A stretch of 64,000 bases of DNA, taken from assembly GCA_036253495.1 (NCBI GenBank), contig GCA_036253495.1_4125.1, one strand, 5' to 3'. This DNA comes from a phage. A model generated the notes under the pieces. It saw only the letters and a program-made list of their open reading frames with translations, did no database searches and was not told the DNA's origin. Below, piece after piece: positions 9,506 through 26,512 of the stretch (within the stretch, counting starts at the first letter, position 1; each line of letters starts with the position of its first letter). The translations under genes and the position numbers were made by a program.

Positions 9506-10003
9506 ATGACTACAGTATATGTTGACAAGCGTGTTGGATTATTGCTCACTGATTCACGAGTAACAACCACTACTGAGAGGTACTTTCTCGGATTATTCCC
9601 GTTAAAACCAAAAAAACAATATGGTGTAGTTACTCAAAAATCATTATACATTCATGATCGTCTGTTTAGTGCCGCAGGTTCAGTGAATGAAATCAATAAA
9701 GTATTGATGTATTTGATATATGGTGATATAGTACTGCCCAGTAGAAAAGAGAACTGCCATTGTGTCTTGTTGTCCAAAGATTATTGTATTCACTTAGGAA
9801 CAAAGAACGGGAAGTTTTTTAAGTACCTTGAGTTCATGCATGAGGAATATGTATTCTTCATGGGAAGTGGTGGAGAGTACATGGTTGATGCTGCTGTGCA
9901 TGAGAACCAAGACACACTACTTCAAAAAATATTCAGTACTTTCAAAGAGGTAAAAAACCACGATGAATATACTGACGACAATATTAATGTATACCAATTT
10001 TGA
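9506..10003 (+). CDS. hypothetical protein
   Basis: 165 aa ORF. Confidence 0.55.
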   Translation: MTTVYVDKRVGLLLTDSRVTTTTERYFLGLFPLKPKKQYGVVTQKSLYIHDRLFSAAGSVNEINKVLMYLIYGDIVLPSRKENCHCVLLSKDYCIHLGTKNGKFFKYLEFMHEEYVFFMGSGGEYMVDAAVHENQDTLLQKIFSTFKEVKNHDEYTDDNINVYQF

Positions 10004-10024
10004 TTTTTTCATTAGGAGAAGTAA

Positions 10025-10987
10025 GTGAAGAAACTAGACTTAAACGCAATTTCCGAAGAAGTACTGGATGAATGTTTTGCGAATGAAGAAGTCAATCCAT
10101 TGGAAGCAATTGAACCATCAGAAGTTATTGAAGATGATATTCCACATAAAGTTCGTAGTAAAAGTAACATTAGTCTCAAGCGTCCAGTAGGTGTGACTAA
10201 TGAATCCATCATCGAAGAGATTCGTGCTGGAATTAATGTAAAAAAGAACACTGACCTATTACTTCGTTATAACTATGGTATGATCGTTGATGTTGCTTCA
10301 AAGTGTACATGTTATATTCCGTTTGAAGATAAAATTGCATATGGTGTAGAAGGTTTTATGCGAGCACTTAAAACCTTTGATCTTAGTAAGAATGTCAAAT
10401 TCATTACATATGCAACAACGTCCGTTTATATGACTATGTATAATGAAAGTTCAGATGCAAATTACATGGTGTACTTACCACGTTATATGAGCGTTCATAA
10501 CATCCAAGTACGTCGATTTAATGAATCATATCAACGTGAACACGGTAAGCGACCTACACCAGAATTAATCTCTGAGAGTACTGGTATCGAGCTTCAGCAC
10601 GTTAAGAACTGTTTGTTATACCAGAATGCATATACGACTCTTGATGCACAACTGGGTTCAGATTCAGACGGAACCCTTGGGGATATTCTGAGTTCATCTG
10701 CTCGTGATTATAACCTTAATGTTGATAGCATTTGTAATCCATTACGTTATGCAATCACAGAAATCATTGACGAATTGAGTACTAAAGAACGAGAAATTAT
10801 CATGCGTGTTCATGGTCTGGGGGATTACAAAGCAGAAACCCTTCGTGAAATTTCTGATAATGGATATGTTGATGATAAAGGAAACATTGTTAAGTCCCGT
10901 TCATCTGTGCACCGAAAATATAGTGAAGCTATTCAAAAGCTTAAAAAAATAGTACTTGAAAAAGGGTACGAATACGAAGATTTCTAA
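10025..10987 (+). CDS. sigma-70 family RNA polymerase sigma factor
   Basis: Region 2 signature EGFMRALKTFD..KFITYATTSVYMTM matches the conserved sigma70 FD...G..FSTYA pattern; C-terminal region-4-like segment; GTG start after AGGAGA. Confidence 0.8.
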   Translation: MKKLDLNAISEEVLDECFANEEVNPLEAIEPSEVIEDDIPHKVRSKSNISLKRPVGVTNESIIEEIRAGINVKKNTDLLLRYNYGMIVDVASKCTCYIPFEDKIAYGVEGFMRALKTFDLSKNVKFITYATTSVYMTMYNESSDANYMVYLPRYMSVHNIQVRRFNESYQREHGKRPTPELISESTGIELQHVKNCLLYQNAYTTLDAQLGSDSDGTLGDILSSSARDYNLNVDSICNPLRYAITEIIDELSTKEREIIMRVHGLGDYKAETLREISDNGYVDDKGNIVKSRSSVHRKYSEAIQKLKKIVLEKGYEYEDF

Positions 10988-10994
10988 AGAACAA

Positions 10995-11021
10995 GGGTTG
11001 ACTTAGGTCAGCCCTTTTTTT
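10995..11021 (+). terminator. Rho-independent terminator
   Basis: GGGTTGACTTAGGTCAGCCC hairpin followed by T7 run. Confidence 0.7.
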
Positions 11022-11545
11022 ATGGGACAAAATGGATGTTCATGATACAATGATATTGTACAATTCTGTTGGCATGGATGACATGAACCTGATCCACTCG
11101 AAAATGTAGAGGGCAGTTGAGCAGTCCAGCAGTGCGAAGTGCAGAAGAAACCCGTCAGATGTGGGCATATTATGAACCCCTCACGGCAATGCGGCACTAT
11201 AAAGAACCACGTTAGGATGGCTGGTGGTTCCTCGATAGACATATAAGGATAACACCTTACAAATTATCTAAGGGAGAGTTATCAAATTTTGTACAGGAAA
11301 GTTGCGTCCAAAATTTGAGTACTCACATTAAGTATTTGATTGCATAGATACTTAATGAAGATACACTATGTTTAAAAGTGTAGACCGTCATATGAAACTG
11401 AAGTAGAGAGAAACAGGATGACCCGCTTTCGTACTCATTAAGAGTAATCTTCAATGCAATAGCTCTGATACCATCAGCGTCAAATTCCCCTCCCAGCGGG
11501 GGGAAGAAAAATCCCTTCCTCAAATCCCGTCAATATTAAAAGTCC

Positions 11546-11574
11546 TTGACAGTTATTAATCATTCGCGTAGAAT
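11546..11574 (+). promoter_or_regulatory. sigma70-like promoter
   Basis: TTGACA, 17 bp spacer, TAGAAT. Confidence 0.5.
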
Positions 11575-11638
11575 ACGTAGTATTAGAAGCGAACAGACAT
11601 CTCGAAGAGATGGATGACTAACTATTAAGGAACATTCA

Positions 11639-11848
11639 ATGAATACTACAATCTTTTTAGTAGTTGCTCTTTCAATGCAATCCGGTGTACAAATTACCCC
11701 TATGAATTCATTAAACCAATGTTTTTCTGTACGTGATAGTACATACGAACAAGTAAACAAAAATTCTTGGATGACAGTTAGTGAAGAACAAATGTGGTGT
11801 TACAAAAGTGATATTAAAGCGAAATTTATTGTAGGACAAACTCAATGA
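11639..11848 (+). CDS. hypothetical small protein
   Basis: 69 aa ORF. Confidence 0.45.
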   Translation: MNTTIFLVVALSMQSGVQITPMNSLNQCFSVRDSTYEQVNKNSWMTVSEEQMWCYKSDIKAKFIVGQTQ

Positions 11849-12039
11849 TTTATCGAGTGAGGTTTGAAGTTTGTAAAATTGTTTTCAATAGCAAAGGTGA
11901 AGCCTCACTCGATGAAACTCTGCACATATATAATCTCCAATTTAGGGCAAAAACAGAAGCTGATGCATTAGTAAACATGTTTAATTTCAACCATAGGTGC
12001 GGGTATCATTTAGTAAGAGTTATAGAGGTTAAAAAGTAA
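11845..12039 (+). CDS. hypothetical small protein
   Basis: 64 aa, ATGA overlap. Confidence 0.45.
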   Translation: MIYRVRFEVCKIVFNSKGEASLDETLHIYNLQFRAKTEADALVNMFNFNHRCGYHLVRVIEVKK

Positions 12040-12069
12040 TCACCGAATGCAGTGAAGAGGAAATCTAAA

Positions 12070-12864
12070 ATGAGTACTATCGATGAATTGATTCGACGGA
12101 ATTCAAAATATTACCAACCATCAGAAATTGTGGATAATATTACTAAATCTGAGTTTGGACCTAATACTCGCAAACTCATTCATGTAATGTCTCGTGACGG
12201 CTTTAAATGTGATTGTTGTGGTGAATCCAATGTAGTATTCACTTTACATAAGCACAGTACTAAAGAACGTTATAAATTCAGACCTTATGTACTTAAAGGG
12301 AAACGTCTTGTACGCATGACGTTAGACCATAATGTACTGGACTGTCTCCAGGGTGGTAATGATAAAGAGAACATGACTGCACTGTGTGAGGATTGTAATG
12401 CCTTACGCCAGCATAAGTTCGCAGAGTACAGCGAGTTTAAGTACTGGTATCATAATGCAGACCGTTCAATTGAGCCTAATGTAAACTACTGCTTCATTGA
12501 GTACATCAAGAATGCAAAAGATACATACATTCTTAAATCCATGTCTCCGATTACAGTGTTTCCTGAGAATCTATTCAGTACTATGGAGCGTGATTTCAAG
12601 CGTGGTATCATCAATGCATTCAAGCACTTAGACAAAGGTATCAAGCACTTTGATGTTGAATGTTTAAATTCAGGTATGAATCATTTAGTACAAATTTACA
12701 TGAAATCGTTTATAGGTATTGACAGTGCACGACTACCAGTATATAATTACTTTATTGAAAGCGTAGAAGGTGAATCACTTCGTGATTATGGTGAAAGATT
12801 TAATAAGAAAGTTTTCACTGCAATAGCAAATGAGATTCATTACTATAAACCATATGTAATTTAA
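12070..12864 (+). CDS. HNH endonuclease (putative homing endonuclease)
   Basis: CDCCG ... LDHNVLDCLQGGNDKENMTALCEDCN HNH-type motif; ATG 12070 after GAGGA. Confidence 0.65.
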   Translation: MSTIDELIRRNSKYYQPSEIVDNITKSEFGPNTRKLIHVMSRDGFKCDCCGESNVVFTLHKHSTKERYKFRPYVLKGKRLVRMTLDHNVLDCLQGGNDKENMTALCEDCNALRQHKFAEYSEFKYWYHNADRSIEPNVNYCFIEYIKNAKDTYILKSMSPITVFPENLFSTMERDFKRGIINAFKHLDKGIKHFDVECLNSGMNHLVQIYMKSFIGIDSARLPVYNYFIESVEGESLRDYGERFNKKVFTAIANEIHYYKPYVI

Positions 12865-12878
12865 TTAGAGGAACTATC

Positions 12879-13046
12879 ATGCAAATCATTATCTTAATCG
12901 TTGGTATCGGTTTGGGCATCTATGGACATTCATGGGTAACTGAGAAGTTTCCTGACACCCGTCCAGATTACTGTACAACTAAAACTGAAAGTACTGAAAG
13001 TATTGGAACTAAGATCGATAAAGTAATCGAGGTGATTAAACAATGA
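12879..13046 (+). CDS. small membrane peptide
   Basis: 55 aa, hydrophobic N-terminus, GAGGAA RBS; hand-translated. Confidence 0.4.
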   Translation: MQIIILIVGIGLGIYGHSWVTEKFPDTRPDYCTTKTESTESIGTKIDKVIEVIKQ

Positions 13047-13134
13047 TGAAACTTAATATATTTCTGGTTGTATTCACTGTCGTTGTTATCGGTATTGGTG
13101 CACTGGCATATATCCAACCTTAAAGGAAAAATAA

Positions 13135-13335
13135 ATGTTTAAATCGAATACAAATGTTGGTAAGCAGGTTCAATTACTTGAAGACGTATCCACTATGAGT
13201 GGAACCTTCACTAAAGGTCACATCATGACTATTATTGCCGAAACATCCCGTGGCTGGGACTTGGAAGATGCTGATGGTAATCGCATCCTTGAGGCTGGCT
13301 TCTATGGTCATCGTGAATATAAAATCATTGATTAA
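13135..13335 (+). CDS. hypothetical small protein
   Basis: 66 aa ORF. Confidence 0.5.
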   Translation: MFKSNTNVGKQVQLLEDVSTMSGTFTKGHIMTIIAETSRGWDLEDADGNRILEAGFYGHREYKIID

Positions 13336-13433
13336 GGATGCAAACGTGACTTTAGAGATTATCGTTGGTATTGTTAGTTTTAGTCATCTGTGTTGGTTGG
13401 TTTGGGTATATGATGATTTTTAGTGATTAATAC

Positions 13434-13461
13434 TTGACAGAAGATATCAGTACTGTATAAT
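13434..13461 (+). promoter_or_regulatory. sigma70-like promoter
   Basis: TTGACA, 16 bp spacer, TATAAT with upstream CAGTACTG. Confidence 0.55.
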
Positions 13462-13506
13462 GTTTATATCAAACGAAATCCACTTTAACAAATGATAGGA
13501 AATATT

Positions 13507-15667: not shown

Positions 15668-16173
15668 TGAATCTTAGTACTGATAAGTTTGTAAAGTTCA
15701 TAGAGTTTATCAACTTCAATGAGAGCTACAATGGTACGTACAATACTATGAATATTGTATCTGATAAAGTATTTGATAGTACAATGTTCTATTTGTATGA
15801 TACAAACGGTGATAAGCTGTGTGATGTTACATTCGGTATTGGTGATCTTTTTGAATCTGCGGTTTATCTATCTAAACCAACGGTGCGTGATACATATGAA
15901 ATTCACTTTCATAATAGACCGAATCACAAAAACATTGTAGAATATGATATACCATCATCACACGAACTGTTCATTGTAGATTACAGTACTGAAGAGGGTG
16001 TATTTCAAAGTTCATTGCTATACAACTTTGAACTACACGATCCTGATATTCCTAAAGTACTGGCAATTTCCAATAAGGTATGTGAATTGCCATATAACAT
16101 ATACATGTCAGTTCCTGGTAAAAGAGTAGGTAATTTCTGTAAAGCCTTTGACATACAAGCGGATGATAAATGA
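15667..16173 (+). CDS. hypothetical protein
   Basis: 168 aa ORF. Confidence 0.55.
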   Translation: MNLSTDKFVKFIEFINFNESYNGTYNTMNIVSDKVFDSTMFYLYDTNGDKLCDVTFGIGDLFESAVYLSKPTVRDTYEIHFHNRPNHKNIVEYDIPSSHELFIVDYSTEEGVFQSSLLYNFELHDPDIPKVLAISNKVCELPYNIYMSVPGKRVGNFCKAFDIQADDK

Positions 16174-16394
16174 ACAGATACGTGATTGAATACGTGGGTA
16201 TATCTGAATTTGATAACATTCGTGGCTATGAAAAGGTCATGAGTGAACGCACGATATATGTTAGGGGTCGCGATGAAGCCCATGTTCTCTCTTTACTGTT
16301 AAATGACCTGACAAAGTTCAATACAACAAAGACACAACGTTATATTGAAACAATTAAATCTATTAAACTTTTAGACGAGGATGATGAAGAATGA
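16170..16394 (+). CDS. hypothetical small protein
   Basis: 74 aa, ATGA overlap. Confidence 0.5.
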   Translation: MNRYVIEYVGISEFDNIRGYEKVMSERTIYVRGRDEAHVLSLLLNDLTKFNTTKTQRYIETIKSIKLLDEDDEE

Positions 16395-16603
16395 ATTTAT
16401 ATCTAGTAGAAGGTACAGTGCAGGTTTTCCGTTTTGATGGTGATCGTGGTATGCGTTTCTCACATGTTGAAGAATTTAAATTTGTCGTACATGCAGAAGG
16501 TGAGTACGAAGCAGAGATTAAAGTATCTGAATCCTTTGATAAGAAAGAAACAGTAGATGTACAGTATCAGCAACTACAATTTAAAGTGTGGCCTACGCTT
16601 TAA
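16391..16603 (+). CDS. hypothetical small protein
   Basis: 70 aa, ATGA overlap. Confidence 0.5.
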   Translation: MNLYLVEGTVQVFRFDGDRGMRFSHVEEFKFVVHAEGEYEAEIKVSESFDKKETVDVQYQQLQFKVWPTL

Positions 16604-16607
16604 AAAC

Positions 16608-16636
16608 TTGACACGCATGTAAAAAGCGAGTATTAT
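16608..16636 (+). promoter_or_regulatory. sigma70-like promoter
   Basis: TTGACA, 17 bp spacer, TATTAT. Confidence 0.5.
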
Positions 16637-16667
16637 ATCTGTATTATGAATTAACTGAGGAATACGT

Positions 16668-17333
16668 ATGCTCGCCAATTTAAGTTACATTATTAGTGAT
16701 GATATGGTACAAAGTCGTGGTATGTATCTTGAGAAAGTTCCATACGATAGCGATGGTATCAAAGGAACTTTATACGAAAGTCGTTTTGACAGAAAGCATC
16801 CATTCTGGGAAAAGGCTAATCTAACGGAAGAAGATAGTAATCGTTTATTTTGTGCTGTGCAGACGCCTACACCTGGTATATTAGCGGGTTATGGTATAGA
16901 TAAAGTCATTAACTTTATGACAGACTATGAAGTTATTAAAAGTCTGCAATATATTAATACGAACAATGGTGAGTTCTATAATTCTGATGATTTTCTTGCT
17001 ATGTGTAGTGCTTCATATGAGAGTGAATTATTGCCAAGTGGTAGACCATTCCCATTGTCAACACATTGTAATTCCCCTTACGGTGTAGCTGACAACTTAC
17101 AGCAGATCCTTAAGAAACATAAGAATGTTCTTACATCTGAAATGGAAGTTGTTATTGGATTTCATCCAGTGTACAAGGAAGATCAACCTGAACATGGTGG
17201 GTGGCGTTGGCATAAGCACGGCACATACATTGGTACTCATAAGAAAAAGCATGAGTACTTGTATGATGAAGAAGGTATTGATGTTGTTTATTGTTACGAA
17301 CTAATCCCAGTAAAGAAAAAGGAAACACTATAA
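16668..17333 (+). CDS. hypothetical protein
   Basis: 221 aa, GAGGAA RBS. Confidence 0.6.
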   Translation: MLANLSYIISDDMVQSRGMYLEKVPYDSDGIKGTLYESRFDRKHPFWEKANLTEEDSNRLFCAVQTPTPGILAGYGIDKVINFMTDYEVIKSLQYINTNNGEFYNSDDFLAMCSASYESELLPSGRPFPLSTHCNSPYGVADNLQQILKKHKNVLTSEMEVVIGFHPVYKEDQPEHGGWRWHKHGTYIGTHKKKHEYLYDEEGIDVVYCYELIPVKKKETL

Positions 17334-17575
17334 TGTTAATTTTATACGTTGTACTGATTTTATTAGTTAACTTTTCTCCAACTATTTTAACTTTAGTATG
17401 GGGTAAATTTTATGATGCTGTAAAAGTATTTCTCTTGAATACTGCATGGGTATTGGTAAGTCTGACTCTTTATTGGTCTACTGATTGGATGATGATTGTG
17501 AGTCATATACTACTATATATTTCATTCCTAATGTTGTTCCAAGAAAAAGAAGTACTTGACAAACTTGAAGGTTAG
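17333..17575 (+). CDS. small membrane protein
   Basis: TAATG overlap; two hydrophobic helices. Confidence 0.5.
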   Translation: MLILYVVLILLVNFSPTILTLVWGKFYDAVKVFLLNTAWVLVSLTLYWSTDWMMIVSHILLYISFLMLFQEKEVLDKLEG

Positions 17576-17584
17576 ACCTATAAT
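17556..17584 (+). promoter_or_regulatory. sigma70-like promoter
   Basis: TTGACA, 17 bp spacer, TATAAT. Confidence 0.55.
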
Positions 17585-17607
17585 ATCCTTCTACTAAGGG
17601 GGATATT

Positions 17608-17868
17608 ATGGCAGTAGGGTTTGGTTCACCAGATAACCACCAAGAAACGATACAAGCAACTATTGATAATGCTATTGACTTTGCTCGCTCAAATCTGTAT
17701 AGTGGTGAGTCTGAAGAGTACTGCATCGACTGTGACTGTGAGATACCAGAGAAGCGGAGGTTAGTACTGAAGGGTGTAAAACGATGTGTTCAGTGTCAAT
17801 CAAAGGTTGACAAGGTATATCAAGAGCGTTATAATAGACGTGGAAGTAAAGACAGCCAACTCCGTTAA
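17608..17868 (+). CDS. TraR/DksA-like C4 zinc-finger protein
   Basis: CIDCDCEIP ... RCVQC four-cysteine arrangement in an 86-aa protein. Confidence 0.5.
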   Translation: MAVGFGSPDNHQETIQATIDNAIDFARSNLYSGESEEYCIDCDCEIPEKRRLVLKGVKRCVQCQSKVDKVYQERYNRRGSKDSQLR

Positions 17869-17888
17869 ATTAATATGAGGAACTACTA

Positions 17889-18221
17889 ATGTTATCATTT
17901 ATTCTTTCTATCCCTTGTTTTGTTCTTCTTTTTGTATTACTTTTTGAAGCATTCCAGAAAGATGAAGAAGTTAAAAATGACCTACGTAAACTATTCAATC
18001 TGGATAGTCCAGTAGTTGGGATCTTTTATGTTTTAGTATGTGTGTATGCTGTTGTGTGGCTATTGGGCTTTTTATTACCACTATCTACTGTACTTGCATG
18101 GATTTCCGTTGTTGAAAATTTAGTAGCTATTGTATGGTTTATTCAATGTTTGTTTAGTGGTTTGGTTTCTGATTGGATTTTCTTACTTAAAGTGAAGTTT
18201 AAATCAAAATCTGATAAGTAA
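17889..18221 (+). CDS. small membrane protein
   Basis: 110 aa hydrophobic ORF. Confidence 0.55.
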   Translation: MLSFILSIPCFVLLFVLLFEAFQKDEEVKNDLRKLFNLDSPVVGIFYVLVCVYAVVWLLGFLLPLSTVLAWISVVENLVAIVWFIQCLFSGLVSDWIFLLKVKFKSKSDK

Positions 18222-18312
18222 TAACCAAGTACTCATATAAAATACAGAATAGTATTAAATACTTGTGTACTAGTTAAGTACGCAAGTATTTTTTTATTAT
18301 TTTGAGGTTAAT

Positions 18313-18678
18313 ATGGGAAAGCTTACAATTATAATAGCCATGATAATGGCACTTAATGTTATGCCAGTTGAAGCTAACGAGGACGTTGCGTGGTTCGATT
18401 GCATAGGAAATGATGGACAGTGGCATACGTTTTCCAGTGATCCATATAATGGTACTGATATACTAATAGATGGTGAAAATTATCGTTTTGTTAGTGAAAG
18501 TAAAATTGGCAACAAAAAGGTATCGACATTTAGAACTGATTCTGGTATAATTGCTAATGTCATACTGATAGTTGATCCTGAAAATAATACAGGGGATATA
18601 TATGTAGTGGTTTACCGTGATCATTCCAATAAAAGAAGTCTGGATCTTGATAAACTTCATTTACATTGTCAAATATAA
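18313..18678 (+). CDS. putative secreted protein
   Basis: Signal peptide-like N-terminus; paralog of 19064..19417. Confidence 0.55.
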   Translation: MGKLTIIIAMIMALNVMPVEANEDVAWFDCIGNDGQWHTFSSDPYNGTDILIDGENYRFVSESKIGNKKVSTFRTDSGIIANVILIVDPENNTGDIYVVVYRDHSNKRSLDLDKLHLHCQI

Positions 18679-18692
18679 TTTAAGGTAAATCT

Positions 18693-19067
18693 ATGTTCAA
18701 TAGTATCATTGGGTTCTCATTAGTACTTCCACAAATCATTTTTGGTATTTGTTTTGTAACTTTTATGATGGGGTCAATCTATGGTATATGGTATTACATT
18801 TTAAAACAATCAGATGGAATCATTTTAAAAATAACAATGCATTTTGATGTGGATTCACCAGCATGGAATTCATCTATTATTACCAATACATTGTATTTTA
18901 TGATGATCATTTTGGAACAATTGGGATTTGTATCTAATAGTAATGTTTCTATGACCGCAGGTATGGCAAGTATTTGTTGTTTGTGGTATATTGTTTATAA
19001 GATTGATGTGTTGTATAATATGTATCGTGAAATGGTATTGAACAGAGATATGCAGAGGAAAAAATGA
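18693..19067 (+). CDS. small membrane protein
   Basis: 124 aa hydrophobic ORF. Confidence 0.55.
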   Translation: MFNSIIGFSLVLPQIIFGICFVTFMMGSIYGIWYYILKQSDGIILKITMHFDVDSPAWNSSIITNTLYFMMIILEQLGFVSNSNVSMTAGMASICCLWYIVYKIDVLYNMYREMVLNRDMQRKK

Positions 19068-19417
19068 TGAAAGTTATATTATTTTTTATGTGTATTATTA
19101 TGTGTGGTGTCTCTTATGCTGCACCCTTAGCCGGATTGCTTTGTAAAGAGAATTCTGAACAACACATATTCCAAGGGGATTCAGATGACCTTGATATCAT
19201 TTACATCGATGGTACTGAATATACATACGTTAAAGACCATACTGTTGGTGATATCAGTTTCACTGAATATGCAAAAACAGGTGACACTGATTATAGAGCC
19301 TACCTTCAAGTGAATATGATAGAGGGTGAAGACGGAACACAAGAAGTCAAACTCGTACTTAAACGTATTGGAGATAAGGAGGCTGATTTTGGAGGTGAGT
19401 GTACATATGATGATTGA
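19064..19417 (+). CDS. putative secreted protein
   Basis: Signal peptide; C-terminal KLVLKRIGDKEADFGGECTYDD. Confidence 0.55.
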   Translation: MMKVILFFMCIIMCGVSYAAPLAGLLCKENSEQHIFQGDSDDLDIIYIDGTEYTYVKDHTVGDISFTEYAKTGDTDYRAYLQVNMIEGEDGTQEVKLVLKRIGDKEADFGGECTYDD

Positions 19418-19425
19418 TTAAAAAA

Positions 19426-19458
19426 GGTTGACTAACGTCAGCCTTTTTTGTTATACTG
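19426..19458 (+). terminator. terminator hairpin overlapping promoter -35
   Basis: GGTTGACTAACGTCAGCC hairpin, T-run, then TATACT. Confidence 0.6.
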
Positions 19459-19466
19459 ATCCCAAT

Positions 19467-19592
19467 ATGCTTGCATTTCTTCAAGTTGATGTATATGAAG
19501 AAAGTAATGGCGAACAGTATGTTAAACTTGTGATGATGCGTAAGGCAGCAAAACAGGCAACATTCGGTGGCTTGTGTAAATATGAGGACTAA
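19467..19592 (+). pseudogene. truncated paralog remnant of the 19064 secreted-protein family
   Basis: 41-aa ORF ending KLVMMRKAAKQATFGGLCKYED, resembling the C-terminus of 19064..19417. Confidence 0.35.
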
Positions 19593-19596
19593 ACAT

Positions 19597-19788
19597 ATGT
19601 TGATTTATCAATGTGATAACATTCGTGTTATACAGCATCCCTACTTACAAATCTTTGATGTGCAGCAGTATATGGAAGGTGATGACCCAAGAACCTATGG
19701 TCGTAAGTATGATTACTTCACTGTAAAGCAGTGTCGTAACATCAAAGAAGTACGACAATTAGTTCAAGAACTTCAAAATAAAGGTTGA
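19597..19788 (+). CDS. hypothetical small protein
   Basis: ATG 19597 after GAGGA; track ORF from 19567. Confidence 0.5.
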   Translation: MLIYQCDNIRVIQHPYLQIFDVQQYMEGDDPRTYGRKYDYFTVKQCRNIKEVRQLVQELQNKG

Positions 19789-19814
19789 CTTCGGTCAGCC
19801 TTTTTTGTTATAAT
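19783..19814 (+). terminator. terminator hairpin overlapping promoter -35
   Basis: GGTTGAC-TTCG-GTCAGCC, T-run, TATAAT. Confidence 0.7.
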
Positions 19815-19843
19815 CATTTCATCTACTACTGGGGATTTTAATT

Positions 19844-20284
19844 ATGTATGTATATCGTTTTGAACTTAAATTCAGTTATATTGAACCTAACTTAGATCCT
19901 GCAAAAACAGTAGGACCGTTCGCACGGTACTCTTCGCGATACAGTACTAAAAATGGATTTGAACGTTTGTGTATGACTACACCTTCGCAATTCCAACCTG
20001 AGCCAACTGAAGATGGGATCTATTCAATCAAACGTGGCTGGGCATTTGGATGCCAAAGTTTAAACGACCTGTTCAGATTCTTTACAATGGACTTAGGTAA
20101 ACTTCATCGTTCAGGATTTTCTGTTTTTGTGTATGAAGTTCCTGATAACCATGTAGACATTGGACATAACCAAGTGCAGTACTATTGTGGTAGTGCAAAA
20201 CTACTTCGTATTATGTCAGTAAAGGAAGCTAAAGAAGAATTTCGTGCTACAAGATTTAATAAGGAAGAGATGGCATATGGATAA
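19844..20284 (+). CDS. hypothetical protein
   Basis: 146 aa ORF. Confidence 0.55.
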   Translation: MYVYRFELKFSYIEPNLDPAKTVGPFARYSSRYSTKNGFERLCMTTPSQFQPEPTEDGIYSIKRGWAFGCQSLNDLFRFFTMDLGKLHRSGFSVFVYEVPDNHVDIGHNQVQYYCGSAKLLRIMSVKEAKEEFRATRFNKEEMAYG

Positions 20285-20633
20285 AACATCAACACGATTT
20301 GCAAAGTTCTTGAGTTATGAGATACCACAAGATCCGTATTTCGACCAACGTGACGATGAAGATTACATAAAGTTAACTCGTGAACTACGAAATAAGTTCC
20401 AACAGATTTTAAGTTCATACACTAATACACATCCACATTTAAAGTACTTCATTAAGGCAGATATAGATTCAGATGATTCTGAACTATCATTCCTTGAATA
20501 CACAGTTGAGTGTGTTGGGTATGTACCTGATAATAGTGTAATTAATCACAACAAAATAAAGTTCGACTTGTACGTTATTTGTGTTATAATGAACTTAATT
20601 GCACAAATGAACAACTATTCAATAGGGGATTAA
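20277..20633 (+). CDS. hypothetical protein
   Basis: ATG 20277 overlapping upstream stop; track ORF from 20244. Confidence 0.5.
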   Translation: MDKTSTRFAKFLSYEIPQDPYFDQRDDEDYIKLTRELRNKFQQILSSYTNTHPHLKYFIKADIDSDDSELSFLEYTVECVGYVPDNSVINHNKIKFDLYVICVIMNLIAQMNNYSIGD

Positions 20634-20897
20634 ATGAAACTGAAATTGAACTATCATGGTTTTCGTCTGCGTGATGATGTGGAGTTCCTTCGTCGCACAC
20701 CAGGTGCTGAGTTGTTTTTAACTGAAATGGGTGTCCCATTTAAAGTCGAGCACATTGGTGACAATGACTGCCTGGTATATGATAATCAACCGGATATCAA
20801 CGTTCCGTGGTATTCTGAACATATGTACATTGATATGGCGGCTCGCTACAACTGTACGTTTGAAATTACATCTAAAGGTATTGCTATTCAATTCTAA
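20634..20897 (+). CDS. hypothetical protein
   Basis: 87 aa ORF. Confidence 0.5.
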   Translation: MKLKLNYHGFRLRDDVEFLRRTPGAELFLTEMGVPFKVEHIGDNDCLVYDNQPDINVPWYSEHMYIDMAARYNCTFEITSKGIAIQF

Positions 20898-20918
20898 TAG
20901 TCTGATGGACACGAGTAA

Positions 20919-21143
20919 ATGAAATACATGCTGGTGGCATTAATGTTTGTGAGCACAATAGTACAAGCCAGAATCAAGTACTTTGTGAAGTGTACAAACG
21001 TTAGCGGTGGCTACACAGAGACATATCAGGGTAAGTCGGTTAAGATGGCAATACACAATGATAGAGGAACAGTGATTTTCCTTGTGAATGATATAATCAT
21101 TTTGTACAAACCAGATGTACCATGTGAAGTAAAAAGATATTAA
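20919..21143 (+). CDS. putative secreted small protein
   Basis: Signal-like N-terminus. Confidence 0.5.
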   Translation: MKYMLVALMFVSTIVQARIKYFVKCTNVSGGYTETYQGKSVKMAIHNDRGTVIFLVNDIIILYKPDVPCEVKRY

Positions 21144-21148
21144 ACTAC

Positions 21149-21180
21149 GGGGTTGGCATAAGTCAGCCCTTTTGTATAAT
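21149..21180 (+). terminator. terminator hairpin overlapping promoter
   Basis: GGTTGGCATAAGTCAGCC hairpin, T-run, TATAAT. Confidence 0.5.
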
Positions 21181-21188
21181 GGTGACTT

Positions 21189-21767
21189 ATGAACCGTAAA
21201 GGTAAGTTTAAAGTATCAAAGAAGAATAAAAGTGGAAGGTTCAATGATATATGCTTAGGTTTTATCAAAGCACACAATAAACTTTCTGCCCTGAGTAGAA
21301 AGATAGTATCTAACAAGATTGATATTAGATATATAAGTACTAACAATAGTACAGGGAAAGATGCACATCCAACTGAAAATATTATTTCAGTATCCTTCGT
21401 ATACGATGGTCTGGACATTACGATAGATGATTACAGACGATACGGTACTGGGTTTATACGTATCTATTGCAGAGATGCATCTGATAAGCCGGAACGTATT
21501 CGTATTATCGGTACATTGAGTGCTGGTATATTTGAGTGGGAGATTGTTCAACTTAAAACTATCGATGAGTACACCACAAGTTCTAATATTATTGAGTTGA
21601 ATTGCAATGTGAAAGACCTCCCAAACTTGAGCGAAGAAGAATATTTTCAAGAAAGCTTGCTAACGCCAAATTTGGATGATATAATTAAACAATATAAGAC
21701 GATGGTGTACTTCTTCAAATGTATCAAACCTAAGACTTGTTTGATGAATATTGTCCGTGATCTATAA
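21189..21767 (+). CDS. hypothetical protein; LSEEEYFQ motif family
   Basis: 192 aa; motif shared with 71..538 and 1088..1552. Confidence 0.55.
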   Translation: MNRKGKFKVSKKNKSGRFNDICLGFIKAHNKLSALSRKIVSNKIDIRYISTNNSTGKDAHPTENIISVSFVYDGLDITIDDYRRYGTGFIRIYCRDASDKPERIRIIGTLSAGIFEWEIVQLKTIDEYTTSSNIIELNCNVKDLPNLSEEEYFQESLLTPNLDDIIKQYKTMVYFFKCIKPKTCLMNIVRDL

Positions 21768-21778
21768 CAGGAAAAAAT

Positions 21779-22210
21779 ATGTGGGTTAACGTTAATAGTA
21801 CTGAACTTAATGAAATTGATATCTTTGCATTTGTTAATCTGGAAACTGATACCTTTGTTCGTGGACGTTTGTTCATGAGTTCTTCCTGTGTTCGCAGTAT
21901 TGCAGTTATGGATGAACTCGGTCAGGTAATTGAGTGTCTACCATTACCTGCATGGGCATATAGCAGTACTGAAGAAGATGTAATGCATAAGATCTTTGAA
22001 GGTATCAATAAGCTACCTGGTGCAGATGTGAAGAATAAGATATTCAACATTGAGAATAAGAACTACAGTGCAGATGTACTGCGTCCTTTAGTTGATTCAG
22101 TACTGCAAGCTGCATTAGCTAAACCTAAGTGCATTATTTTAAAGTACATTCCAGAACTTTCCCTAACTAAAGAGGATATGAAAGGATTTATATTCTCATC
22201 GGAGTTGTGA
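21779..22210 (+). CDS. hypothetical protein
   Basis: 143 aa ORF. Confidence 0.55.
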   Translation: MWVNVNSTELNEIDIFAFVNLETDTFVRGRLFMSSSCVRSIAVMDELGQVIECLPLPAWAYSSTEEDVMHKIFEGINKLPGADVKNKIFNIENKNYSADVLRPLVDSVLQAALAKPKCIILKYIPELSLTKEDMKGFIFSSEL

Positions 22211-22434
22211 TGAAAAGGTATAAAATTGAATACCTACTTAAAGTAAGAGAGAAAAGTATTAGTAGTGAGAAATACACCAGTGAGATATTCGTCAGAGATG
22301 AGTATTACATTGGTGAAAATGAAGTTGAAGTACTGTTACAATGCATAGAAAATGAATTTCGAGATATGACACGTTATATGTCATTTGAGATATCGTGTGC
22401 AAAAGTTACATTCTTGAACAATACTTCATATTAA
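22207..22434 (+). CDS. hypothetical small protein
   Basis: 75 aa, ATGA overlap. Confidence 0.5.
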   Translation: MMKRYKIEYLLKVREKSISSEKYTSEIFVRDEYYIGENEVEVLLQCIENEFRDMTRYMSFEISCAKVTFLNNTSY

Positions 22435-22437
22435 AAA

Positions 22438-22480
22438 AGGGTTGACTTTTGTTGACCCTTTTTGCTATTCTATAAATATA
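22438..22480 (+). terminator. terminator hairpin overlapping promoter
   Basis: GGGTTGACTTTTGTTGACCC imperfect hairpin, T-run, AT-rich -10. Confidence 0.5.
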
Positions 22481-22524
22481 GACATAGAGAATATATAACA
22501 TGAAATCTATGGAGAGAAATCAAA

Positions 22525-24063
22525 ATGCCAGGTAAATTCACTGACAAAAACGGCGGCAATATGGCTGGACACTCTGATAAATGGAGTGATGAGAATCGTC
22601 GCAAAAATAGTTTCCAAGCGGGGCAAGGTTCCCGTGGCTCTCGCAACCAAGGAACGGGAGAAGCTGGGAAAGCAAACACAGTTGCATCACAGGGTCTTGA
22701 TACTTCAAACATGTCCCAGCATGAAAAATTGAAGTACTTCAATAGTCTTGGTCTTTTAAATCCGCAGCAGAAGCAACAACTTGCTGCTCTGGATAAAGCA
22801 CAAGAACAACCTAAAGCAGCACCTGAAGCACCTGCACAGCCTAAAGCGGCTAATCCGGTAAAAGAACTAAGTGATAAACTTGGGAAGATCTTTGCTAACA
22901 AACCACAACTAATTCAAGGTATCGTAAAAGCACTTCAAGCGGTTCCTAAAGAACAACTCAAGGATAAAGCACAAGCTGTTCTTGATAGTATGAAAGGGAA
23001 TACCAGTACTGAACCAACTGAAGTATTCAGTACTATCATGCGTGCACTTGAAGGTAAGCCACAGGCCGATGATGATATTGAGTTTGATGAACCTGCACAA
23101 GAAGTAGCAAATCTTGACTCAATCGTTTCTACATTTGGAAAAATTGGTGCAGAAGATAAGACTAATGCACAACAAGTTAAGAATGTACAAGCTAAGTTAC
23201 AAAATCGTCTTGAAGGTAAAGATGAAAAGATTAAACTTGCAGCAGATGCGTTGAAGAAAGCATTAGAATCATATAAACCTGGTGAGAAATCTCGCTTCAT
23301 TACTGCAATGAATGCAGTATTCGGTGCAATGAAAAAGTATGAAGCTGAACACGGTGAGAAAGTAACTCCTGATGGATATCTCCTTCGAAAAGATGAAGAA
23401 GGTGCTGTTGACCAGAAGGACGCTGAACCAGACTATGGTGATTTACCGGATACAGTTGATATGGATGGTTACATTCATCGTCCTGATATGCAAGAATTTG
23501 GTTCAGACAAAGAAGGTTTTGAACATGCTATGGCTGTGTACAAAGCATTAGTCGATAATCCACAATATGCAAATAGTTTTGTAGATGAGTTTGATAGTGC
23601 ATGGAACAACTACCAAGACAAAGGATATGATTTCCCAGCAGAAGCAGCATTCTTTGAACTAGGTAAACTTCTTGCTAAAAATGGTATTAATGTTGGTTCT
23701 AATGGTGAAGCAAACACTTCAGAAATGGACGCTGAATTGGCTAAAGATCGTGAAATGACTGATAAGTCAATTCATGAACTACAAAAGCTAATGATGTGGA
23801 TTGCTGAAATTGGTAAGAAAGCTGGTGCAGATCCTAAGAGCATTAACAGCAATATTAGTTGGATTAAACATAAGGTTGATAACAATGCCCGTAAATTACA
23901 AAAGGCATGGACCGACCTAGTGAATGGTGCAGACGATGTTGATATCGATTCACCGGAAGCATACGAGTACGCATTGAACACACTTGATAACTCTTTCCAG
24001 GATTACGAAAATGGTAACGTAACTGATTGGGAAAAGGATATCATGCATAAGTACGGTAAATGA
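22525..24063 (+). CDS. hypothetical K/A/E/Q-rich low-complexity protein
   Basis: 512 aa, GGAGAG RBS; largest plus-strand ORF in the left module. Confidence 0.65.
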   Translation: MPGKFTDKNGGNMAGHSDKWSDENRRKNSFQAGQGSRGSRNQGTGEAGKANTVASQGLDTSNMSQHEKLKYFNSLGLLNPQQKQQLAALDKAQEQPKAAPEAPAQPKAANPVKELSDKLGKIFANKPQLIQGIVKALQAVPKEQLKDKAQAVLDSMKGNTSTEPTEVFSTIMRALEGKPQADDDIEFDEPAQEVANLDSIVSTFGKIGAEDKTNAQQVKNVQAKLQNRLEGKDEKIKLAADALKKALESYKPGEKSRFITAMNAVFGAMKKYEAEHGEKVTPDGYLLRKDEEGAVDQKDAEPDYGDLPDTVDMDGYIHRPDMQEFGSDKEGFEHAMAVYKALVDNPQYANSFVDEFDSAWNNYQDKGYDFPAEAAFFELGKLLAKNGINVGSNGEANTSEMDAELAKDREMTDKSIHELQKLMMWIAEIGKKAGADPKSINSNISWIKHKVDNNARKLQKAWTDLVNGADDVDIDSPEAYEYALNTLDNSFQDYENGNVTDWEKDIMHKYGK

Positions 24064-24072
24064 TAAAAAAGA

Positions 24073-24104
24073 GGTTGACTTCGGTCAGCCTTTTTTGCTA
24101 TAAT
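24073..24104 (+). terminator. terminator hairpin overlapping promoter -35
   Basis: GGTTGAC-TTCG-GTCAGCC, T-run, TATAAT. Confidence 0.7.
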
Positions 24105-24131
24105 ACTCACATAACCTAAAGGAGAAACTCT

Positions 24132-24407
24132 ATGAACACATACGAACGTTTAGTTGGCTCAATGCGTTATGAAGAAATTTTAAGTGATATCGAAGAACTG
24201 AAAGACTCGAAAAGTTACATCCACTTAGATGAACTTATCGTGAAGTATGGGGAGGTTGGTGCAAAAGAATTAATTTGCTTTATGGTTCATGTTCGAAATT
24301 TAAATTACTTTGATCTTTCATCGAAGAACGGTGAACCGAATCTTTATTATCTATATTATTTGAAACATAAAGATGCATGTAATAAATTATTCTTAGAACT
24401 TTTATAA
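24132..24407 (+). CDS. hypothetical protein
   Basis: 91 aa, AAGGAG RBS. Confidence 0.55.
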   Translation: MNTYERLVGSMRYEEILSDIEELKDSKSYIHLDELIVKYGEVGAKELICFMVHVRNLNYFDLSSKNGEPNLYYLYYLKHKDACNKLFLELL

Positions 24408-24420
24408 CTGGAGATATCTA

Positions 24421-24681
24421 ATGCAAAACCCTGAATTGAAAATGTTTACACAAATCCGTCTTGCTCGTGTTGAACATGACACTAACTATGTACTGAACGA
24501 TGGTCCTCCACAACGCGTTGAAGTTGGTTATATTGACGTTGATAATTCACAATCTCTTCTGATTACCATTGGTTCTAACTCTTACAGTGTTGCTACACTG
24601 GAGAGTGTATTGTCCTTGGCACAATCCGCAAGGATTGCCCGTAACGCTCTTATGAACTGTGATGAACCTGATAATGAATGA
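24421..24681 (+). CDS. hypothetical protein
   Basis: 86 aa ORF. Confidence 0.5.
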   Translation: MQNPELKMFTQIRLARVEHDTNYVLNDGPPQRVEVGYIDVDNSQSLLITIGSNSYSVATLESVLSLAQSARIARNALMNCDEPDNE

Positions 24682-25012
24682 TTATATGTATGAATTAAAC
24701 ATGATATCGTTTGTTTTATCGGGTATCGGATGGATGTACTATATGCTTGGGTATATTTTATTATTCTTCCGATACAATACATTCTACAAACGCTATTGGG
24801 ATGATGCACCAATTCACTTCTTCGCATTTGTATTCTTAACTATGGCAGTGGGTGAAGTACTGCTAACTGGTATCCAAAATACTGGTGGAATGATGTGCAC
24901 ACTAACAACATTCTTTGTTGTTTTTGGGACTGTAGTTTGGTTTTTCGCGTGGGGACTCTTCTCTTTGATTATGAAACTTGAGAAACTCCGAGACAAATTA
25001 CCAGAGCGTTGA
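24659..25012 (+). CDS. small membrane protein (start uncertain)
   Basis: 117 aa hydrophobic ORF overlapping upstream gene. Confidence 0.45.
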   Translation: MMNLIMNDYMYELNMISFVLSGIGWMYYMLGYILLFFRYNTFYKRYWDDAPIHFFAFVFLTMAVGEVLLTGIQNTGGMMCTLTTFFVVFGTVVWFFAWGLFSLIMKLEKLRDKLPER

Positions 25013-25022
25013 TGAAAAGTAT

Positions 25023-25078
25023 TTGACAAACTCAACTAGTACTGTATAATGTTTATCAAGGGGATGAACTTCTCATCC
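25023..25078 (+). promoter_or_regulatory. sigma70-like promoter plus 5' hairpin
   Basis: TTGACA, 16 bp spacer, TATAAT, then GGGATGA-ACTTC-TCATCCC hairpin before the RBS. Confidence 0.55.
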
Positions 25079-25097
25079 CTACAATCGAGGAACTACC

Positions 25098-25652
25098 ATG
25101 ATTACTTTTAAGAAAACTGCCAACCACATCCATGAAATCTACATTAACGGTCACAAAGCTGGCCTTCTTCGTTTACTCGCCCATCATCCTGATGCTACCG
25201 TATCTGATAATGAACCTAAAGATTGGCGTGTCTTTTTCTTTGGGAAGTACAGTGATTTTCAAGTATCAAACCTGAAGAACATTCGTTCAGTATGCACGTT
25301 AACTGAAATTAAAGAAAAGTTAGCCAAAGCATTGAAAACTAATCCAGATGGTGTTCTTCCACCTGATAACTTTGTAGAGAAAGGATATGCCTTAGCTCAT
25401 TTCAAAGATGGTACTATTCAATCTATCAGTACTGAATATGAATACCAATGGACTGAGTACTTCACTTATGGCTCCCGTGATACTTTGATGGCTTCACGTA
25501 GTAAATTGGAAGAAGTACTGACTCGTATGAATGAACGCGAGCGTCAGTACTATGACAAACCAGAAATGTGGAGTTCAACTTACATTGACCGTATTGACTA
25601 TGTTATGATGACTCCAATCTTTGACACTGCTTACTATGATTCTTTGAAATAA
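25098..25652 (+). CDS. hypothetical protein
   Basis: 184 aa, GAGGAA RBS. Confidence 0.6.
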   Translation: MITFKKTANHIHEIYINGHKAGLLRLLAHHPDATVSDNEPKDWRVFFFGKYSDFQVSNLKNIRSVCTLTEIKEKLAKALKTNPDGVLPPDNFVEKGYALAHFKDGTIQSISTEYEYQWTEYFTYGSRDTLMASRSKLEEVLTRMNERERQYYDKPEMWSSTYIDRIDYVMMTPIFDTAYYDSLK

Positions 25653-25663
25653 GGATAACTTAT

Positions 25664-25840
25664 ATGAAACTACGTACTCGTAATCGACTGATGGATGCCC
25701 TATATCATGAACAGTGTTCATTAAATGAAGTAAAGCGTCAGTTAATGTACACATATCAGTTACCCGCTCGTGTTGCAAAACAACGTGCTAACGAATTGCT
25801 GAAAGAAGCAATCGAGTACTGGGAATCTGATTCGTACTAA
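25664..25840 (+). CDS. hypothetical small protein
   Basis: 58 aa hand-translated; AAGGAT RBS. Confidence 0.4.
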   Translation: MKLRTRNRLMDALYHEQCSLNEVKRQLMYTYQLPARVAKQRANELLKEAIEYWESDSY

Positions 25841-25879
25841 TATTACGTGATATGTCACGTTAATTAAGTGAGGCGATAA

Positions 25880-26131
25880 ATGAAAATTTTATTAGTTCTA
25901 ATACTACTAATTGTTTTACCATTTACTTTAGTATCCCCTGAACTTGCATGGAATGTGTTTGTGTACTTAGTATGTACTATTGTAGTAAATGGTATCTTGT
26001 TCTTAGTTCTATTCATAAATGGAATAGGACACGGTGGAGGATGGACCAGTACTGCTGATATTGTACATAAAACCACTATGTCTTTATTTGTAGTGTGGAA
26101 TTTATTCTGGACTTGGTTTGTGTTCTTCTAA
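25880..26131 (+). CDS. small membrane protein
   Basis: 83 aa hydrophobic. Confidence 0.5.
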   Translation: MKILLVLILLIVLPFTLVSPELAWNVFVYLVCTIVVNGILFLVLFINGIGHGGGWTSTADIVHKTTMSLFVVWNLFWTWFVFF

Positions 26132-26140
26132 TTAAAAAAT

Positions 26141-26512
26141 ATGAATATAGATTTGAAAGGTGCAACACGAACTGTCATACTCATTGGGGAATATGCTATC
26201 AAGATTCCAACCTTCAAAAGCTGGAAGTTATTCCTAATTGGAATGATAGCTAACCTCAATGAACGCTCATGGATGCAGTACTCCAAGCGTAGTGATAGTG
26301 GGATATGTCCTACTCTGTGGTCATCGCGAACTGGCTTAATAACAGTACAGAAACGTTGTAAGCCAGTACAACATAGGGGTTTGTTTTGGGTGGAGTTGAG
26401 TGCATTAGCATTGAATTCAGAGTTGAGTACTGACTTCTTCTATTCAGATGCGAAGCCAGAAAACTTTGGATATTTGAATGGTAAGTTAGTTAAGCTTGAT
26501 TATGGAGATTGA
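26141..26512 (+). CDS. hypothetical protein
   Basis: 123 aa ORF, weak RBS. Confidence 0.4.
   Translation: MNIDLKGATRTVILIGEYAIKIPTFKSWKLFLIGMIANLNERSWMQYSKRSDSGICPTLWSSRTGLITVQKRCKPVQHRGLFWVELSALALNSELSTDFFYSDAKPENFGYLNGKLVKLDYGD

Follow-up and report, generated by a model that had tools for sequence, protein, structure and literature searches.

Evidence for a new family of large, pseudoknotted RNA genes in jumbo phages and integrated bacterial elements

The known large and intricately folded RNAs of bacteria and phages are very few (RNase P RNA, transfer-messenger RNA (tmRNA), the group I and group II introns, OLE, GOLLD, ROOL, HEARO, and raiA), and each of them has opened up new biochemistry. 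The OLE RNA is a noncoding RNA (ncRNA) of approximately 600 nucleotides (nt) found in the extremophilic Firmicutes, where it is chromosomal, adjoins its protein partners, and forms a ribonucleoprotein (RNP). GOLLD and ROOL are large, ornate ncRNAs of phages and prophages, which form multimeric cages made solely of RNA (PMC12286853). A large catalogue of candidate structured RNAs of viruses contains motifs of only 29-151 nt (PMC10690425). The production of long ncRNAs in quantity by jumbo phages of the wider Rak2-like group is shown by ncRNA002 of PA5oct, a phage distantly related to the one considered here; this transcript is abundant, 451 nt long, and defined by RNA sequencing (RNA-seq; PMC7318152). 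The present analysis deals with a 64,000-nt stretch of phage DNA (contig GCA_036253495.1_4125.1 of the GenBank assembly GCA_036253495.1, referred to here as the window), in which the interval 10988-11638 very probably contains a functional gene of a new family that encodes a large, pseudoknotted, stand-alone structured RNA. The proposed gene and its promoter are as follows:

11043-11051, plus strand: extended -10 promoter TGATACAAT, found by a promoter scan, with TG ahead of the second hexamer, and aligned in the orthologues
11058-11535, plus strand: gene for a structured ncRNA of approximately 480 nt, recognized by profile match, conservation, and covariation

The window derives from an Asteriusvirus-type jumbo phage, which, over positions 10000-12900, shares 99.5% identity with Escherichia phage A4, and approximately 82% with 121Q, PBECO4, and G17. 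A preliminary description of this DNA had noticed a gap free of open reading frames (ORFs) and richer in guanine and cytosine (GC) than its surroundings, between a sigma-factor gene with its terminator and an HNH endonuclease region, with the next promoter at 11546, and had suggested that it might encode a structured ncRNA or be what is left of a mobile insertion linked to the nearby HNH gene. The gap itself was confirmed, together with its placement between the terminator hairpin (10993-11016) and that promoter. The first credible gene after the sigma gene begins at 11639, and the ORFs within the gap reach no more than 79 amino acids (aa), the two longest, at 11003-11242 (79 aa) and 11323-11523 (66 aa), both being on the minus strand, and the rest having 32-42 aa. 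The annotators of A4, 121Q, and UE-S1 called no gene here, and the ORFs are not conserved in position, the 79-aa frame being represented by frames of 54 + 53 aa in 121Q and of 48 aa in UE-S1. No 3-nt periodicity appears in the variability of the alignment columns of the family (0.241/0.240/0.236), and a protein-coding gene was ruled out, as the ORFs compared among the relatives have at most 82 aa and lack positional conservation, and as there is no codon periodicity. A mini-ORF of seven codons that follows the AAGGGAG block in BF, GAP32, and Yen9 was also dismissed, as it is missing from the window and from XbC2. The higher GC content holds as well, at 0.402 in the gap versus a window mean of 0.355 (95th percentile among all the 651-nt windows), rising to 0.421 in the RNA core (11058-11535; 97th percentile).

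The conservation of this segment exceeds that of the genes around it. Its identity to 121Q is 94.1%, in comparison with 75.7% for the sigma gene, 81.5% for the HNH gene, and 81.9% and 62.1% for the two small ORFs downstream, which shows that purifying selection is stronger on the RNA gene than on the adjoining protein genes. The comparison with related genomes proposed in the preliminary description recovered the whole island at 92% identity in the 121Q group and at 99.7% in A4, and a portion of it (approximately 11086-11543) at 68-72% DNA identity in jumbo phages of other genera, that is, in Serratia BF, Erwinia pEa_SNUABM, Pectobacterium CBB, Cronobacter GAP32, Yersinia fHe-Yen9, Xanthomonas XbC2, and Salmonella 7t3/Munch. 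In the records inspected, these copies occupy gaps of approximately 650 base pairs (bp) between unrelated genes, with no annotation, save for small hypothetical ORFs in some records.

These data bear directly on the suggestion of a decayed mobile insertion tied to the HNH gene. The gap is indeed free of ORFs, and the HNH gene that follows 400 bp downstream is itself variable, being intact in the window and in 121Q, and shortened in A4 by an internal deletion of 520 bp (window positions 12090-12609 are missing). However, this indel is independent of the RNA island, which A4 retains at 99.7% identity, and the element is also present at other loci, and in other genera, with no HNH neighbor, for which reasons the link to the HNH gene was rejected. 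The 94% conservation of the RNA, in comparison with 62-82% in the neighboring genes, is also contrary to decay, and a degenerate or frameshifted protein gene is contradicted by the absence of codon periodicity and of any conserved ORF, and by pervasive compensatory changes of base pairs. Explanations of this kind, whether a remnant or a ruined gene, are scarcely credible.

The family profile (nhmmer), which is based on 33 non-redundant copies, matches the window at 11057-11543 (E=1.7e-114), and neither this profile nor a covariance model of the 3' core, which scores 83.5 bits at 11378-11464, recovers a second copy within the 64 kb. Full-length members are retrieved by nhmmer with E-values of 1e-73 to 1e-130, and there are 55 non-redundant members (<97% identity). 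The blocks AAGGGAG and GAUAGACAUAU served as a search pattern, through which further members were recovered; the pattern CGACCGTN{22,48}AACCCGC proved to be non-specific, and the loci derived from it (L093 onward) were disregarded. A 17-base motif, CGGCRAYGCGGCNNNATAAA (11184-11203), occurs once in the window, versus zero occurrences expected by chance, and approximately three times per jumbo-phage genome in IMG/VR. Diverged copies are found by BLAST at 3-5 places per jumbo genome, including four in A4, and the Yersinia phage Yen9-04 has at least five. In Asteriusvirus, Mimasvirus, Eneladusvirus, and related jumbo phages, each genome contains 3-5 such paralogues, which diverged long ago, and, among the sequenced phages, the family is restricted to the jumbo clade.

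A promoter accompanies nearly all these copies, with the motif TGnTAYAHT being located 5-76 nt upstream of the start of the profile in 53 of the 54 members, compared with a background frequency of 0.03 per 100 nt. The position of the promoter in the window would place the start of the transcript near 11058. In the family alignment, the conservation is maintained up to approximately 11535 and is lost beyond this point.

The evidence on structure comes primarily from covariation. RNAalifold, applied to 33 sequences, returned 55 pairs, 30 of which have compensatory changes, and a scan for covariation at the level of whole helices supplied the long-range pairings, resulting in a curated structure of 72 pairs in 14 helices, with three pseudoknots (PK1-PK3). 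In this structure, 95.0% of the cells form a standard pair, in comparison with 36-44% when the partners are slid by 1-3 columns, and 76.6% after shuffling. Both sides have changed in 50 of the 72 pairs (14-22 in the slid controls, 39.5 in the shuffled ones), and the covariation score is 0.483, versus 0.07-0.105 and 0.184, respectively, with none of 500 shuffles reaching the observed value. The stem-forming segments noticed at the outset are thus real, and the structured ncRNA suggested in the preliminary description is sustained by the helices supported by covariation, by the retention of the promoter, and by a conservation that exceeds that of the flanking genes. The elements of the structure are listed below, in order along the RNA:

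11066-11072 (CUGUUGG) with 11126-11132 (CCAGCAG), plus strand: PK1, formed between the 5' end and the loop of a small hairpin; alignment columns 18-22/105-109 are 97.5% paired, and two pairs have 12 double changes each
Within 11066-11132, plus strand: P2, a variable hairpin inside the span of PK1
11089-11116, plus strand: P3, also inside the span of PK1, with compensatory changes in seven of its eight pairs
11121-11123/11133-11135, plus strand: small hairpin of PK1, with a middle pair that is UA 17 times, AU nine times, and CG seven times
11138-11142/11194-11198, plus strand: P4, in which three of five pairs covary and none is broken
11152-11155/11183-11186, plus strand: P5, 100% paired
Between P4 and P5, plus strand: invariant internal loop, with AGAAGAAA opposite CAAUGCG
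11184-11195, plus strand: diagnostic block CGGCAAUGCGGC, invariant in 33 sequences
11204-11230, plus strand: P6, with compensatory changes in all six pairs, 97% paired
11234-11244, plus strand: block GAUAGACAUAU, 100% conserved in the alignment (A1)
11246-11257, plus strand: P7, a small hairpin between the invariant blocks GAUAGACAUAU and AAGGGAG
11270-11276, plus strand: block AAGGGAG, 100% conserved in the same alignment
11283-11317, plus strand: P8 (CAAAUUUUG/CAAAAUUUG), with a conserved loop of 17 nt and moderate pair support
11326-11335/11348-11357, plus strand: P9, in which all ten pairs vary on both sides
11340-11345 (UUGCAU, loop of P9) with 11454-11459 (AUGCAA), plus strand: PK2, a long-range pseudoknot of six pairs, 100% paired, four of them compensatory
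Within 11384-11453 (3' core), plus strand: blocks GACCGU and ACCCGC, both invariant
11387-11391 with 11418-11422, plus strand: PK3, within the loop of P12, with 3-4 covarying pairs
11399-11403/11449-11453, plus strand: P11, with 3-4 covarying pairs
11406-11410/11426-11430, plus strand: P12, with 3-4 covarying pairs
11433-11435/11443-11445, plus strand: P13, in which all three pairs covary
11477-11483, plus strand: box 1, GCGUCAA, on the 5' side of the G/C hairpin
11485-11492/11498-11505, plus strand: G/C hairpin, the pairs of which vary only between G-C and G-U
11527-11533, plus strand: box 2, CCGUCAA, after the conserved tail

The helices of the 3' core (11384-11453), that is, PK3, P11, P12, and P13, are 90-100% paired. 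The possibility that the 3' tail pairs with GGCAAU or GAC was considered and discarded, given that such a pairing shows no covariation and is contradicted by the Serratia copy (L215). The helices are joined by invariant single-stranded blocks, GAAACCCGU, CGGCAAUGCGGC, GAUAGACAUAU, AAGGGAG, GACCGU, and ACCCGC. The P8 hairpin, with its loop GUACAAUAUAGAUCCGUCC, differs in position between members, and the Citrobacter and Serratia copies (L213 and L215) each contain two such hairpins, an arrangement which suggests that this hairpin may be a movable module for a tertiary contact or the binding of a protein. In the working definition of the family, the extended -10 promoter, these six blocks, and PK1-PK3 are combined with a G/C hairpin between two NCGUCAR boxes, and the window copy has every one of these features.

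In five hairpin loops of the window/121Q copy (11077-11082, 11214-11221, 11247-11252, 11295-11301, and 11415-11421), there are GGA motifs, some of which resemble the consensus obtained for CsrA by systematic evolution of ligands by exponential enrichment (ACAGGAUGA). The idea of a CsrA sponge was dropped, as these motifs are not conserved in the family, based on an inspection of the alignments by eye.

The covariance-model scan for known RNA families that had been proposed gave negative results. Rfam 15 (4227 models), run at gathering thresholds over the whole window, yielded no match, and a search of 10900-11750 in E-value mode returned only terminator look-alikes and noise, at 14-23 bits against gathering scores of 47-100. 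In the same mode, 13 members of the family gave no family match inside the element, and none that recurred across members. On this basis, the RNA does not belong to a known family. No tRNA or tmRNA gene was detected in the window by ARAGORN, and GOLLD, ROOL, OLE, HEARO, and raiA went unreported by Rfam even at E<=5-10, the resemblance to these RNAs being one of category only. A group I intron was also considered and set aside, since the element follows a complete sigma gene with its terminator, has a promoter of its own, and is flanked differently in different copies; RF00028 gave no match at E<=10, and the order of the helices, compared by eye, is unlike the P3-P8/P7 arrangement. The RNA of bacterial RNase P was rejected on similar grounds, as there is no Rfam match, and the blocks that resemble CR-I and CR-V (GAAGAAACCCGU and ACAGGAUGACCCGCUU) share the sequence CCCG, without being complementary. 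Here, the covariation pairs CCGU with ACGG and places ACCCG in the loop of P12, unlike P4 of RNase P. The literature searches found no description of the RNA and, as no known family or published account was found to cover it, it would appear to represent a new class, although its biochemical kind could prove analogous to a known mechanism.

The copies of the element are independent of their neighbors. The three copies mapped in 121Q, at approximately 90, 193, and 327 kb, are all on the plus strand, each in an unannotated gap of 610-840 bp, and the genes that flank the RNA vary between both copies and genera. A gene of approximately 265 aa downstream was suspected of encoding a conserved protein partner, an idea that was abandoned, as the neighbors of the other copies are unrelated. 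In the UE-S1 record (L002 2553-2710; ON568341.1 80759-80916), a 158-bp “repeat_region” corresponds to the 5' part of the RNA gene, and the annotators evidently took the paralogous RNA copies for repeats.

This independence is a difficulty for a leader, riboswitch, or attenuator that would act in cis on the genes from 11639 onward. The orientation of these genes is the same as that of the RNA, no terminator separates the two in the window copy, and some members have terminator-like hairpins. The downstream genes have a near-consensus promoter of their own, however, at 11546-11574, they differ between copies and genera, and the third copy of 121Q, on the plus strand, lies between two genes of the minus strand, encoding endonuclease VII and gp595. 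No riboswitch family of Rfam matched, and control in cis is very unlikely.

Action in trans is, instead, the favored view, by virtue of the deep conservation of the junctions and pseudoknots, the independence of neighbors, and the retention of several ancient paralogues. The gene has a host-type sigma-70 extended -10 promoter, and its RNA folds into at least 14 helices, three of them pseudoknots, linked by the invariant single-stranded blocks. The folded molecule may act as the RNA part of an RNP, as an assembly made of RNA only, or as a ribozyme, rather than as a cis leader, and may bind or process some component that is common to the Enterobacterales hosts or to conflicts between mobile elements. 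As a whole, a new-family ncRNA gene with a trans-acting folded product is the best explanation, and is held with considerable confidence, while the narrower assignment to a mechanistic class, that of a trans-acting scaffold, decoy, or ribozyme, is plausible and is proposed tentatively.

The direct boxes at the 3' end have given rise to other proposals. The two NCGUCAR boxes bracket the G/C hairpin, and their variable positions change in parallel across the 55 non-redundant members, which include matched pairs such as UCGUCAG/UCGUCAG, UUGUCAG/UUGUCAG, GCGUCAG/GCGUCAG, CCGUCAG/CCGUCAG, GUGUCA/GUGUCA, ACGUCA/ACGUCA, and CGACAA/CGACAA. Paralogues of the same genome carry different matched pairs, so that a single sequence-specific protein does not account for them. 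No segment complementary to the boxes was found within the RNA, and the idea of an internal guide was rejected. The similarity of the boxes extends weakly upstream. The boxes may both serve as substrates in a single recognition event, for example, in self-processing; alternatively, by analogy with R-loops or guide RNAs, a segment of the RNA may have to equal a segment of the DNA downstream, or an internal duplication may have been kept uniform by gene conversion.

The first two of these readings would place the RNA in a new class of catalytic or DNA-directed RNAs of mobile elements, that is, an RNA which processes itself, with the boxes as substrates, or a primer or guide that matches its own DNA. 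This is given a rather low probability, although, if true, the jumbo phages and integrative elements would share an undescribed RNA-based device for replication or recombination. A more specific version is that of a primer RNA for a replication origin, following the R-loop logic of RNA II of ColE1 and the T4 origins, in which the 3' part would form a persistent hybrid with the template near the G/C hairpin and prime DNA synthesis. The copies of each 350-kb genome would then represent multiple origins, and an integrated element would have one with which to replicate itself. Masukata and Tomizawa reportedly showed, in 1990, that RNA II pairs through its rG run with a dC run close to the origin of ColE1, and the present element is also a promoter-driven, structured RNA of approximately 500 nt, with a G6/C-rich hairpin close to the 3' end. 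An upstream box identical to the downstream one is what would be expected if the RNA paired with the template strand downstream, and the dispersal of the three 121Q copies on one strand, the dispersed best matches in other genomes, and the presence of the element among unrelated genes and in integrative elements are all consistent with this role. By contrast, the invariant junctions and three pseudoknots shared by different phage genera and bacterial elements go far beyond what is usual in origin transcripts, the extended similarity of the two boxes is weak, and neither a GC-skew switch nor any initiator or iteron features were seen at the locus. An origin primer is thus considered to be improbable.

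Pattern scans of bacterial genomes and metagenomes revealed full-length members of the family in bacterial chromosomes. In Citrobacter amalonaticus P55 and Serratia sp. 2723, the RNA gene follows a large serine recombinase gene of the same strand at a distance of 110-380 bp, has its own promoter, and is found at the edge of an integrated element beside host genes; in Citrobacter, a CI-type repressor is found nearby. The same arrangement of recombinase and RNA is repeated in the metagenome contigs L221, L255, and L224, and a decayed remnant of the pair, recombinase and RNA, persists in Serratia sp. L9 (L214 3513-4445). The other loci are as follows:

L213, 1845-4119: recombinase/RNA locus of Citrobacter
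L215, 3257-5901: recombinase/RNA locus of Serratia
L224, 7939-10870: recombinase/RNA locus of a metagenome contig
L221 and L255: recombinase/RNA loci of metagenome contigs

The recombinases beside the RNA (L213/L221/L255, L215, and L224) share only 24-31% identity with one another, which indicates that the synteny has been conserved across old lineages. A reverse-transcriptase-like gene of 309 aa (phrog_2825/phrog_1423) is present at 1343-2272 of L255, in an RNA-bearing serine-recombinase element, and is possibly a retron or an Abi-type defense gene. In Escherichia coli, a copy was found in two of 5,426 complete genomes. The copy inspected, that of strain LR-29-1 (L261, NZ_AP027515.1), belongs to a 10.8-kb island (15791-26685) beside ffs, which contains a tyrosine integrase disrupted by IS3, a small serine recombinase, and a candidate defense trio, DuOB/DUF488/mSLOG-DUF4326 (PADLOC candidate PDC-M45).

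This association raises the possibility of a guide-type RNA for a recombinase or nuclease, such as the large serine recombinase encoded beside it, in the manner of the bridge RNA of IS110 or the omega-RNA of IscB/TnpB. A portion of the RNA would then need to match a site in the DNA of the element that carries it. The position of the RNA gene, directly downstream of divergent recombinase genes and on the same strand, the decayed pair in L214, and the disrupted tyrosine integrase of the E. coli island would all fit with this proposal, and the direct boxes covary as a guide and its target would. However, the 3-5 copies of each jumbo phage have no recombinase neighbor, the covarying stretch is just 7-8 nt long, with both boxes on one strand and probably in one transcript, and HEARO and the related Rfam models gave no match. 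The large serine recombinases are not known to require an RNA, and a position adjacent to an integrase is also the usual site of accessory “moron” genes. A guide function is more doubtful still than that of an origin primer.

A number of observations weigh against a single, independently transcribed RNA that acts as a scaffold or decoy. The parallel variation of the direct boxes and the synteny with the recombinases are not accounted for by a plain scaffold or decoy model. No canonical terminator was recognized before 11546 in the window copy. Approximately one third of the members have a hairpin followed by a U-run within the conserved 3' module, and some have a terminator-like hairpin between the promoter and the RNA, neither of which fits well with a simple picture of one transcript. 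The literature search found no transcriptome of these phages, and no homology to ncRNA001 or ncRNA002 of PA5oct was detected with either nhmmer or the covariance model of the 3' core. The minimum free energy of the single sequence is marginally better than that of its shuffles (z = -1.72), so that folding energy alone is a weak signal, and the demonstration of structure rests with the covariation. The significance derived from shuffling is inflated by the relatedness of the sequences; the slid partners are the fairer control, and there the result is still decisive.

The neighboring features of the locus are as follows:

10025-10987, plus strand: complete gene of the sigma-70 family, the upstream neighbor of the gap
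10993-11023, plus strand: intrinsic terminator of the sigma gene (hairpin 10993-11016, then a U-run), which forms the 5' boundary and lies outside the RNA
11546-11574, plus strand: near-consensus sigma-70 promoter of the small downstream genes, TTGACA-17-TAGAAT (11 of 12 matches), which forms the 3' boundary and lies outside the RNA family
12052-12864: HNH endonuclease gene

The terminator of the sigma gene is one of a set of near-identical intrinsic terminators, AAGGGTTGAC-TTAG-GTCAGCCCTTTTTTT, found at 10993-11019, approximately 19420, 19777, 21150, 22434, 24073, 26934, 27667, 29298, and 61167, and shared with relatives in other genera at 90-94% identity. The spacer at 11536-11638, which contains the downstream promoter, the 5' untranslated region, and a hairpin, CATCTCGAAGAGATG, is 96% identical to 121Q, a level of conservation which equals that of the RNA and is far above that of the ORFs it precedes. 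Other stretches of the window also lack any ORF of at least 70 aa on either strand, that is, 50361-52353, which is the longest, at 2 kb, 62738-63690, 49200-50051, 12865-13491, 46758-47363, 47577-48147, and 60987-61512. The profile of the RNA family has no match in any of these.

The ancient paralogues, the conservation above that of the surrounding proteins, and the link with integrases in temperate elements point to a core function of phages or mobile elements. The RNA is accessible to experiment, with cultivable jumbo phages of E. coli (A4, 121Q, PBECO4, G17, and phAPEC6) and the chromosomal elements of Citrobacter, Serratia, and E. coli being available. It also follows that “empty” gaps of 600-800 bp in the annotations of jumbo phages are genes, and the promoter and the six invariant blocks provide a simple means of annotating them.

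In comparison with the described systems, ncRNA002 of PA5oct is similar in length and, like the new RNA, is free of ORFs and comes from the wider Rak2-like group of jumbo phages. OLE is of the same size class, with extensive conserved sequences at its junctions and, probably, partners in both cases, although the new RNA has neither a conserved adjacent protein nor a match to the Rfam model. The bridge RNA of IS110 and the omega-RNA (HEARO) are likewise structured ncRNAs beside a recombinase or integrase, in which short segments covary with another site of the element. The new RNA is approximately twice the size of the bridge RNA, its candidate partner is a large serine recombinase, and the jumbo-phage copies have no such neighbor; unlike the omega-RNA of IscB/TnpB, it has no match to HEARO in Rfam. 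There is also a likeness in kind to GOLLD and ROOL, which are large, many-helix, pseudoknotted, stand-alone ncRNAs of phages and prophages, with neighboring genes that reveal no partner. The new RNA differs from them in having no match to an Rfam model and no tRNA neighborhood, and in being found in the jumbo phages of the Enterobacterales and in integrative elements, with 3-5 diverged paralogues per genome. With RNA II of ColE1 and the T4 origin transcripts, finally, it shares a promoter-driven, structured RNA of approximately 500 nt, an element of G-run and C-run, and an upstream segment that equals a downstream one, and its multiple copies are dispersed through a large, T4-related genome. 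No antisense regulator was identified for the new RNA, and its tertiary-looking core is conserved much more deeply across genera.

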